A stretch of DNA of 23,170 nt from Candidatus Bipolaricaulia bacterium (GTDB taxonomy: Bacteria; Bipolaricaulota; Bipolaricaulia; JBHIAT01), in the NCBI GenBank assembly GCA_046758705.1, contig JBHIAT010000042.1, positions 1 to 23,170 of the forward strand. Direction: 5' to 3'. Positions 11,896 to 18,012 of this stretch are shown here, piece by piece. The notes beneath the pieces are model-generated. The model worked only from the letters and a program-made list of their open reading frames with translations, was not told the DNA's origin and searched no databases. The first letter of the stretch is position 1. Every line of letters starts with the position of its first letter. The position numbers were made by a program, and so were the translations under genes.

Positions 11896-13557
11896 ATGTC
11901 ATCCTATGAGATTCCTCAACTTCCAGAACCCCAGCCCCCCGCGCCAGATGAAGTGCTTCTGGTGGCCAACGGTGACCTGCGCCAAGCGGCCAATCAGACC
12001 TGCTGGGCAGCTCAGAAAGAGATGGAAGTCCTCATTACGGATGCCTTTGCTGGCGTGGGTATCACGGTGTGCCGCGCGCATCCCTATGATCCGGAGCTGG
12101 ATCACGGCTTCATCTGGAATCAGCGCATGGGCATGGATGTTTTTAAAGATATCCACCCCGACGCGCGATTGATCGTGGCCGAGGCGGTTTGGCAATACAG
12201 TCACCACGTCCTGGCCGGCCTGCGCAGCCATCGGGGACCGATCCTGACCTTGGCCAATTGGTCCGGTCAGTGGCCAGGACTGGTCGGCATGCTCAACCTC
12301 AATGGCTGTCTGACCAAAATGGGCGTGCCTTACAGCACCCTGTGGAGCGAAGATTTTAACGACGGATTCTTTTTGAACGGCATTCGCCAGTGGCTGAAGC
12401 AGGGCCGCATCGACCACGATACCAGCCACGTGCGCGATCTAAACATCGCTGATTTGCCTGCCGCCGAAGTCGAATTAGGCCAAGCGCTGGCTCACCAACT
12501 GGAACGGGAAAAGGCGATCCTGGGCGTCTTCGATGAAGGTTGTATGGGTATGTACAATGCGATCATCGACGACGAACTGCTCAACCCCATGGGGATTTAT
12601 AAAGAGCGACTGAGCCAATCGGCGTTGATCGCGGCGATGTGTCAGGTCTCGGACAAACAGGCAAACGCGGTGCGCGATTGGTTGGATGAACGCGGCATGA
12701 CCTTCGCCACCGGTCCCAATCCGGAGACGGATCTGACCGACGCGCAGATTTTGGAGCAGTGCAAGATGTACATCGCCGCGGTGCGCATCGCTCACGAGTT
12801 CGGCTGCGCCGCCATTGGTATTCAGTATCAGCAGGGACTGAAAGATATGGCCCCGGCGTCCGACTTGGCCGAAGGGTTGCTGAACAACGCCGAGCGACCG
12901 CCGGTCTACGATCAGGCCGGCGGCCAAGAGCTGTACGCCGGTCAGCCGTTGCCCCATTTCAACGAGGTCGACGAGTGTGCCGGCGTGGACGCGCTGGTGA
13001 CCAATCGGGTGTGGACGTCGATGGACCTTGACCCGGCCACGACGCTACACGACCTGCGCTGGGGCGAATGGTATGAGGGCGAAGGGATCGACAACTTCGT
13101 CTGGGTGTTCCTGATCTCGGGGGCGGCACCCGCCTCTCACTTCATCGGCGGTTACGCAGGGGCCGTCAGTGAACGCCAGCCACCGATGTACTTCCGCTTA
13201 GGGGGTGGCACCCTCAAAGGGGTGAGCAAACCGGGAGAGATCGTGTGGAGCCGGGTCTTCGTGCAGAGCGGTGCGCTGCACGCCGATCTGGGCCGGGCGA
13301 CCGTGGTGAAGCTACCTCAAGCCGAGACCGAGCGGCGCTGGCAGGCGACCACTCCCCAGTGGCCGATCATGCACGCCGTGCTGCACGGCGTCAGCCGCGA
13401 CCAGATGATGGCCCAGCATAAGGCCAACCACTTGAACGTCGCCTATGCTCCCTCGGCGGAGATGGCCGATAACGCGCTGGCGGCCAAAGCGGCGATGCTG
13501 GCCGAGCTGGGGGTGGCGGTGCACCTGTGCGGCAAATGCGGATCGTCATGGGAGTGA
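11896..13557 (+). CDS. L-fucose/L-arabinose isomerase-like protein
   Basis: AAGGAGG SD before ATG 11896; 'ANWSGQWPGLVG', 'DEGCMGMYN', 'IGIQYQQGLKD', 'PHFNEVDE', 'TLHDLRWG', 'HKANH' (candidate metal ligands). Confidence 0.8.
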   Translation: MSSYEIPQLPEPQPPAPDEVLLVANGDLRQAANQTCWAAQKEMEVLITDAFAGVGITVCRAHPYDPELDHGFIWNQRMGMDVFKDIHPDARLIVAEAVWQYSHHVLAGLRSHRGPILTLANWSGQWPGLVGMLNLNGCLTKMGVPYSTLWSEDFNDGFFLNGIRQWLKQGRIDHDTSHVRDLNIADLPAAEVELGQALAHQLEREKAILGVFDEGCMGMYNAIIDDELLNPMGIYKERLSQSALIAAMCQVSDKQANAVRDWLDERGMTFATGPNPETDLTDAQILEQCKMYIAAVRIAHEFGCAAIGIQYQQGLKDMAPASDLAEGLLNNAERPPVYDQAGGQELYAGQPLPHFNEVDECAGVDALVTNRVWTSMDLDPATTLHDLRWGEWYEGEGIDNFVWVFLISGAAPASHFIGGYAGAVSERQPPMYFRLGGGTLKGVSKPGEIVWSRVFVQSGALHADLGRATVVKLPQAETERRWQATTPQWPIMHAVLHGVSRDQMMAQHKANHLNVAYAPSAEMADNALAAKAAMLAELGVAVHLCGKCGSSWE

Positions 13558-13582
13558 TAGGGGTCTCTCTACCTTACACTCC
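13551..13582. terminator. Hairpin between convergent stop codons
   Basis: GGAGTG-a-TAGGGGT pairs with ACCTTA-CACTCC (with GU pairs). There is no clear U-tract. Confidence 0.35.
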
Positions 13583-14113
13583 TACCTCCCCCACACCTGA
13601 AACGACTCAAACCGAATCGCCGTCCCATCCGGATAAGCACCGGGATAGATGGTGCGGTCTATCCAGCCGATGGCGTAAACACCGACCTCAACTGGGTCCT
13701 CGACCGAAAACTCCACCGATCCGACGGTGTACCAGTCTGTGCCGTCTGTGCTACACAGAGCATAGACACGGCTGCCAAGTCGCTCCAACCGCAGAAAGAC
13801 GCGCTCGCTAGCCAAACGCCCGCGCCCGATGACCACATCTTCATTTCCGAGGCATCCTATGAACGAGATTTCGTACGCACCCTGGGTTCCTTTATCGAGG
13901 CGTAAGTAATTCTCCTGGTCCTTCCACAGTAGAATCCCACCCATGACAGGGTTTTCTCCGGAGACGGGCACACAAACCGTCTGGACGGCGAAGTCCCCCC
14001 AAACCGGTCGAAGAATGCGAGGAGCGCTCAGGTTCACATACCAGAGGTCCCGTCCGTTCGCGGCATGGATCTCCAGCCCGTCCTGTACGGTGAACGAGCA
14101 ATCGTCGAGAGGT
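13582..14113 (-). pseudogene. 5'-truncated concanavalin-A-like (DUF1349 / beta-xylosidase C-terminal-like) domain fragment
   Basis: The frame continues upstream of the track's GTG 14037 as 'PLDDCSFTVQDGLEIHAANGRDLWYVNLSAPRILRP..GDF', with 'FLRLERLG..VYALCSTDGTDW' further on. No SD or credible start; the protein-like character ends at TTAA 14115-14118. Confidence 0.65.
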
Positions 14114-14117
14114 CTTA

Positions 14118-14318
14118 ACAGGAATCCAGCGCGCCGAGGTCGCCGCGACCAATGCTCGGGACGAGCTGATTCAGGAGCTCCGAGACCGGATCGAGAGCCT
14201 GGAGCACCAACTCGAGCGTAGAGACCAGGAGATCGAGCGCCTTCCCGACATGCTCAACCGGCAGCTCCCGGGCAAAGTCTCGCCCTGGTGGAGACAGTTG
14301 TTTGGGAGGAGTAAATAG
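14118..14318 (+). pseudogene. Headless C-terminal fragment: coiled coil plus amphipathic membrane-targeting tail (…RDELIQELRDRIESLEHQLERRDQEIERL…LPGKVSPWWRQLFGRSK*)
   Basis: Open frame 14118-14318 with heptad pattern and PWWxxLFG end, typical of HTH-coiled-coil proteins of mobile elements. In-frame TGA at 14091 and no start codon before the coiled coil. Confidence 0.7.
14276..14318 (+). repeat. WW-tail repeat copy 1 (core CCTGGTGGA 14284-14292)
   Basis: gtc tcg ccc tgg tgg aga cag ttg ttt ggg agg agt aaa tag = VSPWWRQLFGRSK*. Confidence 0.75.
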
Positions 14319-14343
14319 ACGGTGTTCCTCCGTAACCTCCGTC

Positions 14344-14381
14344 AAAAAAGAGAACGCCGCCCTTGAGGCACAGGACGGCGT
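14344..14381 (-). terminator. Rho-independent terminator of the minus-strand Zn-ribbon gene
   Basis: Minus strand ACGCCGTCCT-gtgcctca-AGGGCGGCGT followed by TCTCTTTTTT, 6 nt after the stop codon. Confidence 0.75.
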
Positions 14382-14387
14382 CACCAA

Positions 14388-14630
14388 CTACGATACTAAG
14401 CCGATTGGCTTAGCAGCGAAAAGACGAACGTAGACACAGTTCGAGCAAACGAGCTGAACCATAGGAACCGAGGGGCCGCCGAGTTGTACTCCACCGTTGG
14501 TATATATAGGAGCACTAACAACATCACCAATGCTCCAGTTGTTAGCACCACAAACCGGACAGCTGTGCTGTCTGCCCCTGGTGTTGAGCCAGCTTTGGAC
14601 CCTCTGCTGTTCTGCTTGACTTAAAGCCAT
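14388..14630 (-). CDS. Small zinc-ribbon protein (80 aa)
   Basis: CPVC…CSNC pairs; AGGAGG SD; has its own promoter and terminator; similar to 15941..16216. Confidence 0.85.
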   Translation of the reverse strand: MALSQAEQQRVQSWLNTRGRQHSCPVCGANNWSIGDVVSAPIYTNGGVQLGGPSVPMVQLVCSNCVYVRLFAAKPIGLVS

Positions 14631-14665
14631 GATTCTACCTCCTCTCTAATGTTGAGGCCCAGAAG

Positions 14666-14738
14666 ATTATATAGTCGCATTGCCAAAATTTCAAATTGTG
14701 GCAATGTTTTGCACAAACAGGTTGGTTTGGGTTATGAT
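14666..14738. promoter_or_regulatory. Divergent promoters with a 29-bp palindromic operator
   Basis: Minus strand TTGAAA (14694-14689), 17 bp, TATAAT (14671-14666). Plus strand TTGCAC (14709-14714), 18 bp, TATGAT (14733-14738). Palindrome CATTGCCAAAATTT-C-AAATTGTGGCAATG at 14678-14706 (13/14). Confidence 0.65.
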
Positions 14739-14770
14739 GTTTTAAAAGAGGTTAAAGGGGGGAGTGAGGA

Positions 14771-15214
14771 ATGGAATTCTACACCAGCCAGGAGGTGGCA
14801 GAACAAACGGAAGTTCCTTATCGTACGCTCATGCGTTGGGTGAAGCAAGGATTGATTGACCCTACAGTTCCCGGGAGGCGGGGCCGCCAAACATTGTTCA
14901 CTAAAGAGGAATTTAGAGAGGTCGCGATTCTCGCCAAGTTGAGAAAGTTTCTGAGTGTGAAACAGCTTAGAGAAGCACTGAATTATCTACGCTCTCTGGG
15001 GCACAACCCTTTATCTGAGGGTGACTTCGCAATTGTCCGTGATATTAGAGGAGAGCGAGCTTTGTTTAAGATCTGCAAAGAAGGCGATGTTATCAAAGTC
15101 ATGGAAGAGGAACCAGGCCAACTTCGATTATTCCCCATCTACGATGTTGAAGAGCTTATAAAGGAAGCTGCACCGATACGAAAATCCTCAGAACAAGGGT
15201 ACTGGACAGATTGA
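14771..15214 (+). CDS. MerR-type HTH DNA-binding protein
   Basis: 'FYTSQEVAEQTEVPYRTLMRWVKQGLIDP…GRRGRQTLF', then 'LSVKQLREALNYLR'; G-rich SD upstream. Confidence 0.85.
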   Translation: MEFYTSQEVAEQTEVPYRTLMRWVKQGLIDPTVPGRRGRQTLFTKEEFREVAILAKLRKFLSVKQLREALNYLRSLGHNPLSEGDFAIVRDIRGERALFKICKEGDVIKVMEEEPGQLRLFPIYDVEELIKEAAPIRKSSEQGYWTD

Positions 15215-15252
15215 TGTCCTGGTGGAAACGTTGGTTTGGGAGAGGGGAGTAG
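15214..15252 (+). repeat. WW-tail repeat copy 2 (core CCTGGTGGA 15218-15226); reads as the 12-aa ORF MSWWKRWFGRGE*
   Basis: atg tcc tgg tgg aaa cgt tgg ttt ggg aga ggg gag tag. The ATG overlaps the MerR TGA, and the stop is 3 nt before the next gene. Confidence 0.7.
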
Positions 15253-15255
15253 CGT

Positions 15256-15828
15256 ATGGATTGGGTAACAATAGCCGTTGGTATAGGTGGCCCCATAATA
15301 GCCGTGATCGGTACCTTGCTCGGTAACGAAAGAGGGGCTCGGAATGCCCGGAAACAAATGGAGCTTCAACATCAATTTCAGCAAAGAGAGAGTGTTCGAC
15401 AGCAAAGGCACCGCTTCGTCGAACAGCAGGTTAAGGAACTTTACTCGCCGATGGTTGGAATCTATCAGGAAGCCCGTGGTAAACTTGTGGTGAGTCAGCG
15501 AATTAAGGCTGCCAGGAAGAAAGCAGGGGCTACCGAGTCTAAGGAGTCTATTGAATATGAACATAGACAAATAGAGGAAAAACTTATACCTGGTCTAGAA
15601 AAAATGCTTGATTTATTCAGAGAGAAGAGGTGGCTTGCAGAGGAGTCAACAGAAGAGTATTACCCCGGTCTTGTTGAGTTTATTGAGATTGAGAATCGCT
15701 TTAAGGCTGGTATCCTTTCTAGTGAGGTTCGTGATGAGCTTGATAAGTCTTCGTTTAGGGCGCTGTTTGAAGACCTCCAGAACCATCTCAGGCGGCTTCG
15801 TGCACAGCTCAGGGAGGGAATGGTTTAA
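15256..15828 (+). CDS. Hypothetical protein with N-terminal TM helix and helical soluble domain (190 aa)
   Basis: 'WVTIAVGIGGPIIAVIGTLLG' TM segment, Q/R-rich coiled region, GGGGAG SD; family not recognised. Confidence 0.75.
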   Translation: MDWVTIAVGIGGPIIAVIGTLLGNERGARNARKQMELQHQFQQRESVRQQRHRFVEQQVKELYSPMVGIYQEARGKLVVSQRIKAARKKAGATESKESIEYEHRQIEEKLIPGLEKMLDLFREKRWLAEESTEEYYPGLVEFIEIENRFKAGILSSEVRDELDKSSFRALFEDLQNHLRRLRAQLREGMV

Positions 15829-15843
15829 TGTTTGAGGTGAGAG

Positions 15844-15883
15844 AGTTTCGCCCTGGTGGAGGAGGTGGTTTAAGAAGGAATAG
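15844..15883 (+). repeat. WW-tail repeat copy 3 (core CCTGGTGGA 15852-15860)
   Basis: gtt tcg ccc tgg tgg agg agg tgg ttt aag aag gaa tag = VSPWWRRWFKKE*. Positions 15844-15861 match 14276-14293 at 17/18. Confidence 0.75.
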
Positions 15884-15940
15884 AGCTAGTCGGTATAAGA
15901 TCTCCTTAAACTGTGAGGTAGCTTCTGAAAGGAGTAGGTC

Positions 15941-16216
15941 ATGGAGTTAAATAAGGAGCAGATCCAGCAATTAGCTAAACACCTTAACGAAAAATGGCCA
16001 TCCCCACGAAACTGTTATGTCTGTAATGACACCCAATGGGAGATTTCGAACAAGGTATTTGAAATTCGAGAGTTTTTCGGTGGAGCGTTGACAGCTGGCC
16101 CCGTAATTCCAATTATCGTATTAGTGTGTAAAAACTGTGGTCACACTGTATTCTTTAGTGCAATGCGCTTAGGTGTTGTGAAACCAGAGGAGAAAGAGGA
16201 GAACAGAGATGAGTAA
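15941..16216 (+). CDS. Small zinc-ribbon protein (91 aa)
   Basis: CYVC…CKNC pairs; AAGGAG SD; same layout as 14388..14630. Confidence 0.85.
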   Translation: MELNKEQIQQLAKHLNEKWPSPRNCYVCNDTQWEISNKVFEIREFFGGALTAGPVIPIIVLVCKNCGHTVFFSAMRLGVVKPEEKEENRDE

Positions 16217-16679
16217 TCAGGGACCTCCTACTGTGACTGTGGCTAAAGACATTGAGTTCTTACCACCAAAGAAAGAGCAAGGAATTCCTATTACGATATC
16301 AGATTGGAGTCATTTGAAAACAAGGATTAGGCGACTTGGGATTGATAGTCTCCTCTTTCATACAATAGGGTCTGTGATTCTTGGTTTTGCAGGTTCAGCC
16401 CTCATTGCTGCATTAACTTTGCCTCAACGGGTTGAGCCCACCGAGAGTGAAATCGTGATTTGGGTGATTTTTGTAGCGGCTCTCTTCATTGGGGTACTCT
16501 CATTATACTTTGCTCATCAAACTAGAGGTGGTGTTCTCGATGAGATGCGTCGCCTTGAAGCGATGTATGTACAGCCCACCGATGAGGGCGGCGCTACCAT
16601 GCCCCAGCGGTGGCGATTATTATCGGTCAATACACCGGACTTCAGTCCGCGTGGACTTTCTCCTCTTTCCATGGTATAA
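16209..16679 (+). CDS. Two-TM hypothetical membrane protein whose 3' end is replaced by the mini-IS
   Basis: Overlaps the Zn-ribbon stop; two hydrophobic helices. The last ~19 codons come from the IS left end, and removing the IS gives …PQRWRLFRRRVQGS*. Confidence 0.75.
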   Translation: MSNQGPPTVTVAKDIEFLPPKKEQGIPITISDWSHLKTRIRRLGIDSLLFHTIGSVILGFAGSALIAALTLPQRVEPTESEIVIWVIFVAALFIGVLSLYFAHQTRGGVLDEMRRLEAMYVQPTDEGGATMPQRWRLLSVNTPDFSPRGLSPLSMV

Positions 16680-16941
16680 TGATCACAGATCTTTGACAAC
16701 GTATGGGGTTGTTGCCGCAACCCTGAGCAACGTAAAACGTTGTGGGTATAGCCAGGTGCATTTTGCCAGCGTTTTGCTGTTCAGCGAAACAGAAGCTAAC
16801 AGCCGCGAAGCCTGGCCTAAAGAAACTAAAACGTTGTGTGTGAACTGGCCGGGCGCGGCCAGCGTGGAGGCGTGAACCGCTGCGAGAGCAAGTTCCGCCT
16901 GTGAAACGAGAAGCCCCGTACTTTAGTGCGGGGAGCGTCAC
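16621..16941 (+). mobile_element. Non-autonomous IS200/IS605-family mini-element (PATE-like), no tnpA or tnpB
   Basis: Left hairpin CACCGGAC-TTCA-GTCCGCGTG (16633-16653) preceded by AATA, with target TTAT at 16617-16620 (or 16620-16623). Right end GAAG-CCCCGTAC-TTTA-GTGCGGGG-AGCG-TCAC (16910-16941). No target duplication, as expected for Y1/HUH elements. Confidence 0.85.
16652..16700 (+). promoter_or_regulatory. Internal sigma70 promoter and boxA-like motif of the mini-element
   Basis: TGGACT (16652-16657), 17 bp, TATAAT (16675-16680) with extended TG; GATCTTTGACAAC at 16688-16700. Confidence 0.7.
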
Positions 16942-16961
16942 TTAGAAGGCGAGTTCAGGGA
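16687..16961 (+). ncRNA. Candidate stand-alone TnpB omegaRNA (reRNA)-like structured RNA with flank-derived guide
   Basis: Several stems (16706-16723, 16728-16742, 16751-16756/16811-16816, 16845-16862, 16869-16899). The 3' part CGTGGAG…GTGAAACGAGAAGCCCC…TCAC resembles tnpB right ends. The guide would start at 16942. Confidence 0.6.
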
Positions 16962-16974
16962 AGTTGAAAACTAG

Positions 16975-17736
16975 TCATCTATGAAAACCCCCTCTGGAGC
17001 ACCCTAAAAGCAGAGGTCCAGCGCCCAGTTCCTGGTTTAGCAAGGTGTGAAACCGCTCATAGGTCCGGATCGCCTGGTCTGGGTCACCGTTTAGATAATG
17101 GTAAAGCATCAATTGTCGGTAAGTCGGCTCGCGATAGGGCTCGATCTCTAGGATCTGACTGCAGCGGGCGATCGCTCTTCGATATTGACCCAGGCGAGCG
17201 TGACATTCGGCCAGTCGGGACAAGGTATCGAGATAGATCCCCTGCCATCGTTCCGTATGCGGGATGGCCCAGTCCTCGTAGCGATCCTCGGCGAGAAACT
17301 CCCCCTGATACAGAGTTACTGCCTGCTGATATGCCTGAATAGCCTGTTCAAATTGGGTTTGGGATTCCAACTGCCTGGCTTGCTGCAGGTGTCCTTTGAA
17401 GATCTCGGAGTCGATGACGCAGTCGGCTTGGGCGTTGAAGCGATAGCCGGAGGGGTGGGTGAGGATATAGTGAGACCGTGTACCTCGTTTAAGCTCAGGC
17501 TCCAGGATGCGGCGCACGCGACTGACCAGAGGTCGGAGGTTTTTCTGGGCTTTGTCGGGATCGGTATCGGGCCAGAGCCAATCGATGAGCTGATCGTGGG
17601 TGAAGGTGCGCCCGGGATCGGTGAGCAGGATTTTGAAAAAGGCTTGGGGTTTGTAACCTCTCCAATCTTCTGGTAAGATCAGCTCTCCATCGCGCCAGAG
17701 TTGGAACGGTCCAAAGAGTTGAACCCGTAAACCCAT
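16975..17736 (-). pseudogene. Second SARP-family regulator (wHTH + BTAD), truncated within the end of BTAD
   Basis: 'LRVQLFGPF', 'KILLTDPGRTFTHDQLIDWLWP', 'LYQGEFLAEDRYEDW', 'EPYREPTYRQLM'. Clearly paralogous to 14..2356 but diverges after 'ELGAGP', where the paralog continues 'ELDVEPAPETRELYRQI'. It could still be a functional short SARP. Confidence 0.7.
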
Positions 17737-17769
17737 GATCGGCCCCCGGCATCGCGATCGCGCTGACTC

Positions 17770-17799
17770 AATATATCTCGGGATAGTGATTTGTGTCAA
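17770..17799 (-). promoter_or_regulatory. sigma70-type promoter of the second SARP gene
   Basis: TTGACA (17799-17794), 18 bp, TATATT (17775-17770). Confidence 0.6.
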
Positions 17800-18012
17800 A
17801 CGGTATGATGGGTAAGAAGGTTAAACCTTGCGTGAGTTCAATTGGGCTGACTTCACCAACCGATAGTTTCTAGTGCCCGTGTGACTCGATTCGAACTATC
17901 CGATCGAGGTATACTTGTAAGTGAGGGTCAATCAGGCTGGAAACGCATCTATTGTGATCAAGCTGTTTTCCATCCATCGTTGACCTCACTGGTAAAGGAA
18001 GGGAGAGAGAAG

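Follow-up and report, generated by a model that had tools for sequence, protein, structure and literature searches.

Contig C42 (JBHIAT010000042.1) of a Candidatus Bipolaricaulia bacterium (assembly GCA_046758705.1) carries, within the 23,170-bp stretch analysed here (the window), an AT-rich block in which three copies of a short tail-coding segment lie among unrelated genes. Each copy encodes a tryptophan-rich peptide followed by a TAG stop; the first ends a broken gene of an unnamed protein family (the tail family) and the other two stand between genes as orphans. The genome is a metagenome bin of 3.70 Mb in 319 contigs, with a GC content of 57% and an estimated contamination of 4.7%. Between 14400 and 16600 the GC content is 0.42–0.48, against 0.55–0.66 in the flanks, so that the units between the tails are indeed AT-richer than their surroundings, as the original prediction, made from the letters of the window, had stated. 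The features of the block and its left flank, each with the evidence for its assignment, are as follows.

13582–14037, minus strand: DUF1349-like gene without its 5' end (Pfam PF07081, profile positions 37–160 of 179)
14094–14318, plus strand: 3' fragment of a tail-family gene, 74 codons, no start codon (profile match to positions 72–147 of 150)
14343–14388, no strand assigned: hairpin with an A/T run, in a 46-nt stretch after tail copy 1 (sequence reading, blastn)
14388–14630, minus strand: Zn-ribbon protein 1, 80 amino acids (phrog_4293, E 1e-7)
14678–14706, no strand assigned: inverted repeat of 14 nt (93%) between the Zn-ribbon 1 and MerR genes, in the region of their divergent promoters (repeat search)
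14771–15214, plus strand: complete MerR/HTH_17 protein, 147 amino acids, natively tail-less (Pfam, 12 homologs)
15214–15252, plus strand: tail copy 2, a 12-codon open reading frame (ORF) beginning with ATG (sequence reading)
15256–15828, plus strand: complete single-pass membrane protein, 190 amino acids, natively tail-less (homologs P0004–P0008, loci L134–L140)
15836–15883, plus strand: tail copy 3, 15 codons from an in-frame TGA to TAG, no start codon (sequence reading)
15941–16216, plus strand: Zn-ribbon protein 2, 91 amino acids (ORF list, PHROGs, paralogy with Zn-ribbon 1)
16209–16679, plus strand: protein with two transmembrane segments, the 2-TM protein (tblastn, repeat borders)
16617–16942, plus strand: high-copy repeat of 326 bp at the right edge of the AT-rich block (copy number, depth)

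The three tail copies are real. The motif CCTGGTGGA occurs in the window at 14284, 15218 and 15852, always on the plus strand and with spacings of 934 and 634 bp; 0.29 copies are expected in a shuffled window and none of 100 shuffles attains three. Across both strands of the whole genome (3,698,413 bp) there are 90 copies, or 0.024 per kb, against which the window is enriched. Because two Trp codons account for six of its nine bases, conservation of the motif as DNA is mostly conservation of the peptide restated. In all three copies the same register reads W-W-basic-x-[L/W]-F, then a few further residues and TAG. In a repeat search the alignment of the copies extends to 28 nt, over which the other two are 68% and 82% identical to copy 1; an identical core of 9 nt is common to the three direct repeats and one of 14 nt to copies 1 and 3. 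A strict six-frame regular expression for the tail gives four matches in the whole genome, three in the window and one on contig C181 (a relaxed version gives 56, nearly all noise), and the BLOSUM scores of copies 3 and 2 (43 and 38) lie above a shuffle maximum of 25. The shuffles and the six-frame search bear out the arrangement described in the original prediction. A coincidence of composition or a chimeric assembly might be suspected in a metagenome bin of so many contigs with some contamination. However, independent Logan contigs from three runs of one study cover 13900–16645 with no differences, so that gene order and reading frames are not bin-assembly errors, and together with the shuffles, the four strict matches and the BLOSUM scores this makes chance or artefact extremely improbable.

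Tail copy 1 is the native C-terminus of the fragment at 14094–14318, its codons running from 14280 to the TAG at 14316–14318. The fragment shows 52% identity to the C-terminal half of a 149-amino-acid paralog that is intact, on C181 (1968–2417). The claim that copy 1 ends a coiled-coil gene holds, and this end is moreover the C-terminus of a whole family, but the gene itself is truncated at its 5' side: there is no start codon before the Met at 14250, homology starts near 14100, and the fragment aligns with a metagenome protein (P0002) across its own 5' breakpoint. The blastn likeness of the DUF1349-like gene to its paralogs ends at 14099–14108, and related metagenome contigs are unlike the window from 14099. 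A position of about 14100, at which both the DUF1349 gene and the tail-family gene are cut, marks the left edge of an island.

The units delimited by the copies, described beforehand as a divergent Zn-ribbon and MerR pair, the membrane gene, and a Zn-ribbon gene with the 2-TM gene, were confirmed by their ORFs and by a domain scan. That copies 2 and 3 are orphans following the stops of complete genes has also stood up to comparison with homologs. Twelve MerR homologs (142–158 amino acids, 44–70% identity) end where the MerR protein of the window ends, with no tail, and five metagenome homologs of the 190-amino-acid membrane protein (30–33% identity) end within four residues of its end, again tail-less; at seven loci of membrane-gene homologs (L134–L140) no tail was found nearby. 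Frameshifted C-termini of the MerR and membrane genes were considered as an origin of copies 2 and 3 and rejected, since the outside homologs of both end alike. Relative to the membrane gene, copy 3 is in the +1 frame, and no single indel can join the two, because TAA at 15826 closes the frame of the gene and TGA at 15833 that of the tail. Copy 3 is also read, in a different frame, by a 40-codon ORF in the third frame (15828–15950), which begins with an ATG overlapping the TAA of the membrane gene, ends with a stop overlapping the start of Zn-ribbon 2, and is possibly only a coupling artefact.

The derivation of the orphan tails from the 3' end of the coiled-coil gene is supported by a family fragment on contig C109, to which copy 3 is identical by eye over 19 of 19 nt and copy 2 over 16 of 16 nt. 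A comparison by eye of copy 3 with C109 over the ten codons surrounding W-W shows four base differences, all synonymous and confined to two Arg codons, which indicates that the tails were coding sequence under selection until recently. The orphan tails also use AT-rich Arg and Lys codons, as do the genes between them (by eye). In one low-depth variant contig (run X3) both Trp codons of copy 2 have become stops. This contig spans 15139–15276 at a depth of 5.4 against 8, with eight of its 12 listed differences inside copy 2, and comes from a second strain or a paralog.

Intact proteins of the tail family have a predicted N-terminal helix-turn-helix (HTH) domain followed by a coiled coil and then by P-W-W with basic and aromatic residues. 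A profile built from seven members and scored against 1.84 billion representative proteins returns 697 cluster representatives at E ≤ 1e-3, 285 of them at E ≤ 1e-10. Among the best 149 of the 697, lengths range from 129 to 218 amino acids, most sequences end in aromatic or basic residues (by eye) and 19 match the strict WW expression. Of 184 genomes of the class, 156 contain the family, most often as one or two copies, against 11 matches in this genome; the family is also present on phage and plasmid-like DNA, including a phage contig that encodes an HTH protein with the same ending. In nine class loci scanned for neighbours, the core family gene lies beside mutL in six, an HD-domain gene adjoins it in two and a Xer-like recombinase is nearby in two; one divergent copy in the class loci precedes a RepA-like gene. 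Four members on C181, C209 and C220 are full-length; three of them have no Pfam match at E ≤ 1e-3, and the C209 member (L004:3652–4191) has a weak sub-threshold match to HTH_24 (E 5e-4; 19.9 bits against a cut-off of 21.9). For the predicted structure of one member, the ESM Atlas gives MerR_1 clusters at a TM-score of 0.47–0.49 over residues 1–98, and a feature search gives small phage HTH_17/HTH_23 clusters at 0.92. The modelled N-terminal domain thus resembles a MerR-like HTH.

Chromosome anchors of the RacA type combine a MerR-like winged helix with a coiled coil, and Noc-type proteins are DNA-binding proteins that bind the membrane. The tail family shares with these a predicted MerR-like DNA-binding domain, a coiled coil and a probable means of reaching membrane, a likeness of architecture and not of compared sequences. 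By analogy with the membrane-targeting sequence of MinD, its C-terminal helix most likely binds the membrane, and the family is a candidate DNA-to-membrane tether that has no Pfam model. As a widespread, unnamed family that is not known to have been studied and is present in most genomes of the class, it is a larger lead than the orphan tails themselves.

The tail is a short basic and hydrophobic segment at the extreme C-terminus, as judged by reading of its position and composition. In this it is like the membrane-targeting sequences of MinD and FtsA, which are short helices at the extreme C-terminus, rich in large hydrophobic and basic residues, that can be moved from one protein to an unrelated one; the likeness to MinD's own ending is drawn by analogy. 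The present tail differs in being Trp-rich, in sitting on DNA-binding coiled-coil proteins, in having a membrane binding that is predicted, and in occurring also as orphans between genes. Attachment of MinD to membrane by means of an amphipathic helix at its C-terminus is described in PMC8155659. The proposal that the tail is membrane-targeting is plausible by likeness to MinD-type sequences. A scan of GTDB with the back-translated tail, at one genome per species, returned at least 120 loci (L014–L133). In 14 of the 120 listed, the motif ends an unrelated ORF of at least 80 codons, with the stop within 25 codons; these ORFs come from several phyla, and among them are protein kinases, a sensor protein of 1005 amino acids and several coiled-coil proteins, including a MerR-like one of Anaerolineae. 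Many of the other listed loci correspond to a nuclease-like planctomycete protein, of which the motif forms the N-terminus, or to conserved genes read in an alternative frame. It is plausible, by analogy, that the tail behaves like a portable C-terminal membrane-targeting helix. In dozens of genomes the eight-residue motif is the N-terminus of a YraN-type-nuclease-like protein of planctomycetes (Gemmataceae).

The fourth strict match leads to a second array on C181. On one strand this contig carries, in order, a Tn3-family transposase gene, two family genes (the first intact, the other ending in a degenerate tail), a membrane-gene paralog and a gene for a secreted protein; a PKD-domain gene follows the transposase gene on the opposite strand. 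The membrane paralog (572–1150) is 60% identical to the membrane protein of the window over the first ~50 residues. Between it and the second family gene, a genome-wide BLOSUM scan finds a 22-codon ATG ORF that ends in the tail motif and whose stop overlaps the ATG of the membrane gene. The C181 membrane protein continues in frame into a tail, whereas that of the window stops and is followed by copy 3 out of frame. When the 60-nt leaders of the two membrane genes are compared, 17 of 19 nt match at the same distance from the start (about −27 to −8), a score reached in 1 of 2000 shuffles; the next 60 nt upstream, used as a control, show no match (260 of 2000 shuffles reach the score). The order of tail ORF, membrane gene and tail, together with the matched leaders, therefore points to a layout common to two old paralogous loci. 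The shared stretch contains purine-rich Gly-Arg-Gly codons that form the Shine-Dalgarno sequence of the membrane gene, and in the window the 3' half of copy 2 is likewise the Shine-Dalgarno and leader of the gene that follows. Homology of the spacer between membrane core and tail at the two loci was tried and rejected, as 501 of 2000 shuffles attain its score.

These short ORFs raise the possibility that the orphan tails have a function of their own. Copy 2, like the 22-codon ORF of C181, could be translated in coupling with the membrane gene, as a micro-protein or as a leader peptide, and act either as an amphipathic membrane peptide that partners the membrane protein or as an upstream ORF that tunes its translation. 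Both loci retain a short ORF with an ATG, the same terminal motif and a stop that overlaps the membrane gene start or lies 3 nt before it; the differences between the two ORFs are synonymous or conservative (Lys/Arg, Gly codons), and the overlap of the copy 2 start with the MerR stop is the usual layout of translational coupling. However, no start codon opens the frame of copy 3, the X3 variant has lost both Trp codons of copy 2, no such ORF exists at the seven loci of outside membrane-gene homologs, and no good ribosome-binding site precedes the C181 micro-ORF (by eye). Moreover, the Shine-Dalgarno and leader also explain the 19 conserved nucleotides. A function of this kind appears quite improbable.

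Beyond C181, family copies in this genome are scattered and often broken. Fragments of the 3' end lie on C28, C109 and C184 as well as in the window, a frameshifted copy on C121, and 5'-only copies on C107 and C209; some copies are near Tn3, IS110, IS630 and TnpB genes and toxin-antitoxin pairs. The codons kept upstream of W-W in the fragments number approximately 1, 5, 13, 18, 24 and 64 of a gene of ~150 codons. The genes found between the tails recur little in the genome: there is only the membrane-gene paralog on C181 and, in a housekeeping setting, a MerR paralog on C148 (60% identity, tail-less; L010 719–4999), between the genes for thymidine kinase and ribonucleotide reductase, and the Zn-ribbon and 2-TM genes have no other occurrence in this genome. 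The ribonucleotide reductase gene of C148 contains intein and LAGLIDADG domains. A degenerate orphan tail whose first Trp codon is now a stop is found at about 3651 on C157, within a 0.8-kb stretch that lacks clear genes.

The explanation tentatively preferred here is that the orphan tails are relic 3' ends of an expanded and decaying family, kept under secondary constraint in the remnant of an integrated element. According to this, the family would be a conserved chromosomal gene of the class that has multiplied in this genome mostly among mobile-element debris, with many copies broken, and the window would contain what is left, decayed and AT-rich, of an integrated element, with a compact operon paralogous to that of C181. 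In the ancestral operon, genes may have followed tail-bearing genes so closely that the tail codons served as the ribosome-binding leader of the next gene. The bodies of the upstream genes would then have been deleted or replaced, leaving the tails as orphans. Copy 2, whose conservation and position are apparent, would have been kept because it holds the start signals of the membrane gene, and copy 3 may be what was recently left of a tail which, on C181, remains an in-frame extension of the membrane protein. No dedicated capture machinery would be involved. If the tails are such relics, they provide an example of a C-terminal anchor motif that outlives its gene through overlap with the start signals of the next one, and annotation should call such motifs neither genes nor att sites.

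Several observations weigh against a relic origin. Two complete, unrelated and tail-less genes end 3 nt and ~8–23 nt before a tail, and the fragments show a strong skew towards the final codons of the family gene, which random decay does not predict. The skew implies either a hot spot near the tail or deletions that stop at the edge of a constrained segment; for the second of these, the conserved leader offers direct sequence support in the case of copy 2 and none in that of copy 3. The peptide of copy 3 is intact despite the lack of a start codon, at least two changes are needed to join it to the membrane gene, and it has no obvious role for the next gene, which lies 55 nt away and has its own Shine-Dalgarno sequence. 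Common descent of the membrane-gene/tail junction in the window and on C181 is not supported by the spacer comparison. Finally, the deletions and replacements are themselves reconstructed and not observed.

The original prediction had instead seen in the array an integron-like platform for gene capture, with modules accumulating by recombination inside the tail-coding 3' end, and the searches carried out here do not support it. No recombinase domain (Phage_integrase included) was detected among the 28 ORFs of the window that were scanned, an absence already noted in the prediction. Genome-wide there are 15 tyrosine (PF00589) and seven serine recombinase matches, none on C42 or C181 and one at 7 kb from a tail-less family member on C39; loss of a recombinase is conceivable because the left part of the island has been deleted. 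Deletion or circle joints that skip units, the circular junctions included that had been suggested as a check, are absent from the contigs of the three runs, although contigs hide rare variants. A lack of attC hairpins had been foreseen and is confirmed, since none of the 22 inverted pairs in 13000–18000 lies at or beside the three tails.

Nor do repeated tails appear beside intact homologs elsewhere, where the platform was expected to leave them. For array variability, the relatives compared were genomes of the same class: no extra tail lies within ~1.5 kb of family members in 17 class loci, with the best non-self score below or near the shuffle maximum, and none was found in 22 loci of five genomes that have several family copies. 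The 120 listed GTDB motif loci contain no tail array (L064 alone has a second match, which looks like chance), and a tail-centred alignment search gave two loci on genome contigs and one on a viral contig, each with a single native tail. A four-row alignment of the family found no relative among 256 pattern matches in genome contigs. Loci of MerR homologs in six other genomes show unrelated contexts and, in their ORF listing, no membrane-gene homolog.

A narrower form of the idea is that units consisting of the rest of one tail, a gene and the start of the next tail insert at the Trp-Trp core in the 3' end of a family gene. Each unit would bring a replacement tail, with a recombinase acting in trans or lost with the left part of the island. 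The 9-nt identical core of three direct repeats, extended to 14 nt between copies 1 and 3, fits this proposal, as do the complete and natively tail-less genes, the presence of the membrane gene between tails in two different arrays, and the restriction of likeness between these arrays to the stretch from the 3' half of the left tail through the membrane gene. The GC-rich family fragment meets AT-rich DNA directly after its tail, the orphan tails share the AT-rich Arg and Lys codons of the genes beside them (by eye), the genome holds 22 recombinase matches, and elements are known to accrete at the end of a target gene (PMC5704250). However, there is no recombinase on either array-bearing contig and no joint in the contigs of the three runs; the units measure 0.6–0.9 kb and carry no mobility genes; the genes of the window are absent from other arrays, and none of the 17 + 22 + 120 + 3 loci of other genomes holds an array. 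Two Trp codons force six of the nine core bases, a Pro codon stands between the Trp codons of the left tail on C181, the core is lost in the variant contig, and the other fragments of the genome have differing 5' breakpoints. Given the shortness of the contigs, in which rare variants do not show, recombination at the tail retains some probability, and insertion at the core is rated as unlikely.

The further step, that the tail-coding segment is itself a recombination site at which single-gene units move between arrays at the 3' ends of family genes, is improbable. The first such movable unit to be recognised would be that of the membrane gene, which has tails on both sides in two arrays of this genome; if true, this would be a new gene-cassette system with a functional peptide-coding motif as its attachment site. 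Known systems resemble the array in part. Integron cassette arrays likewise consist of small, mostly single-gene units in one orientation with a short repeated element after each; here, in contrast, the searched window has no IntI, no attI and no imperfect palindrome of the attC type, and what is repeated codes for a peptide motif. In cdiA and rhs arrays, orphan toxin-immunity modules each retain a short piece of the conserved coding sequence of the main gene, which lets the toxin domain be swapped in. That piece lies 5' of the variable toxin domain, whereas here it is the extreme 3' end, and since all retained tails encode the same motif, recombination would, unlike in cdiA/rhs, diversify no protein.

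A further comparison is with accretion arrays and cis-mobilisable elements (CIMEs) of the ICESt1 type, whose formation at the 3' end of a target gene is described in PMC5704250. Such arrays also have direct repeats from the end of one gene between unrelated blocks of genes, and decayed units without integrases. In the present case direct repeats from a gene's 3' end are found (the 9-nt core, 28 nt at 68–82% identity, the C109 matches), but variable occupation of the site was not seen in the 17 class loci or in the 22 loci of the five genomes with several family copies. The units differ as well, being single genes of 0.6–0.9 kb with repeats that are 64–82% alike outside the 9–14-nt core; there is no linked integrase, and the 'target' gene itself lies within the island and is one of the broken copies of a multi-copy family.

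Among the remaining features of the block, the hairpin at 14343–14388 reads, on the minus strand, as a putative terminator for Zn-ribbon gene 1; in a blastn comparison it is 87% identical to C209:762–806, located between a DUF6788 gene and another tail-family member. The inverted repeat at 14678–14706 is a candidate operator, a function suggested by its position. The two Zn-ribbon proteins are paralogs with 31% identity and conserved CxxC pairs, and Zn-ribbon 1 has no Pfam match in the domain scan of the window. The MerR gene (14771–15214) matches PF13411 with 39.0 bits (cut-off 21.6) and PF12728 with 39.9 bits (cut-off 27), and its HTH match to mad1 is the only PADLOC result for the window. 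PHROGs returns only families of unknown function there, Rfam gives nothing at gathering level across the window nor at E ≤ 1 across 14000–17000, and the window contains no tRNA genes.

The 2-TM gene runs into the 326-bp repeat, which supplies its last 21 codons (from 16617); without the repeat its stop would be the TAG at 16943. In a tblastn search the last 20 residues are found at 100% on four other contigs, with shorter or weaker matches on four more. The repeat is not part of the tail array. It has four identical full-length copies, one at 99.7% and one that lacks the last base, with many further copies at contig ends and diverged copies at 75–89%, and its depth is 150–400 against 12 in the surroundings. 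Neither a terminal inverted repeat nor a target duplication was found when these were looked for at its borders. The repeat may be a small non-autonomous element with an RNA gene. Its folding is strong (z = −3.3), an extended −10-like box lies near its 5' end, and the copy on C279 adjoins a tyrosine-recombinase fragment.

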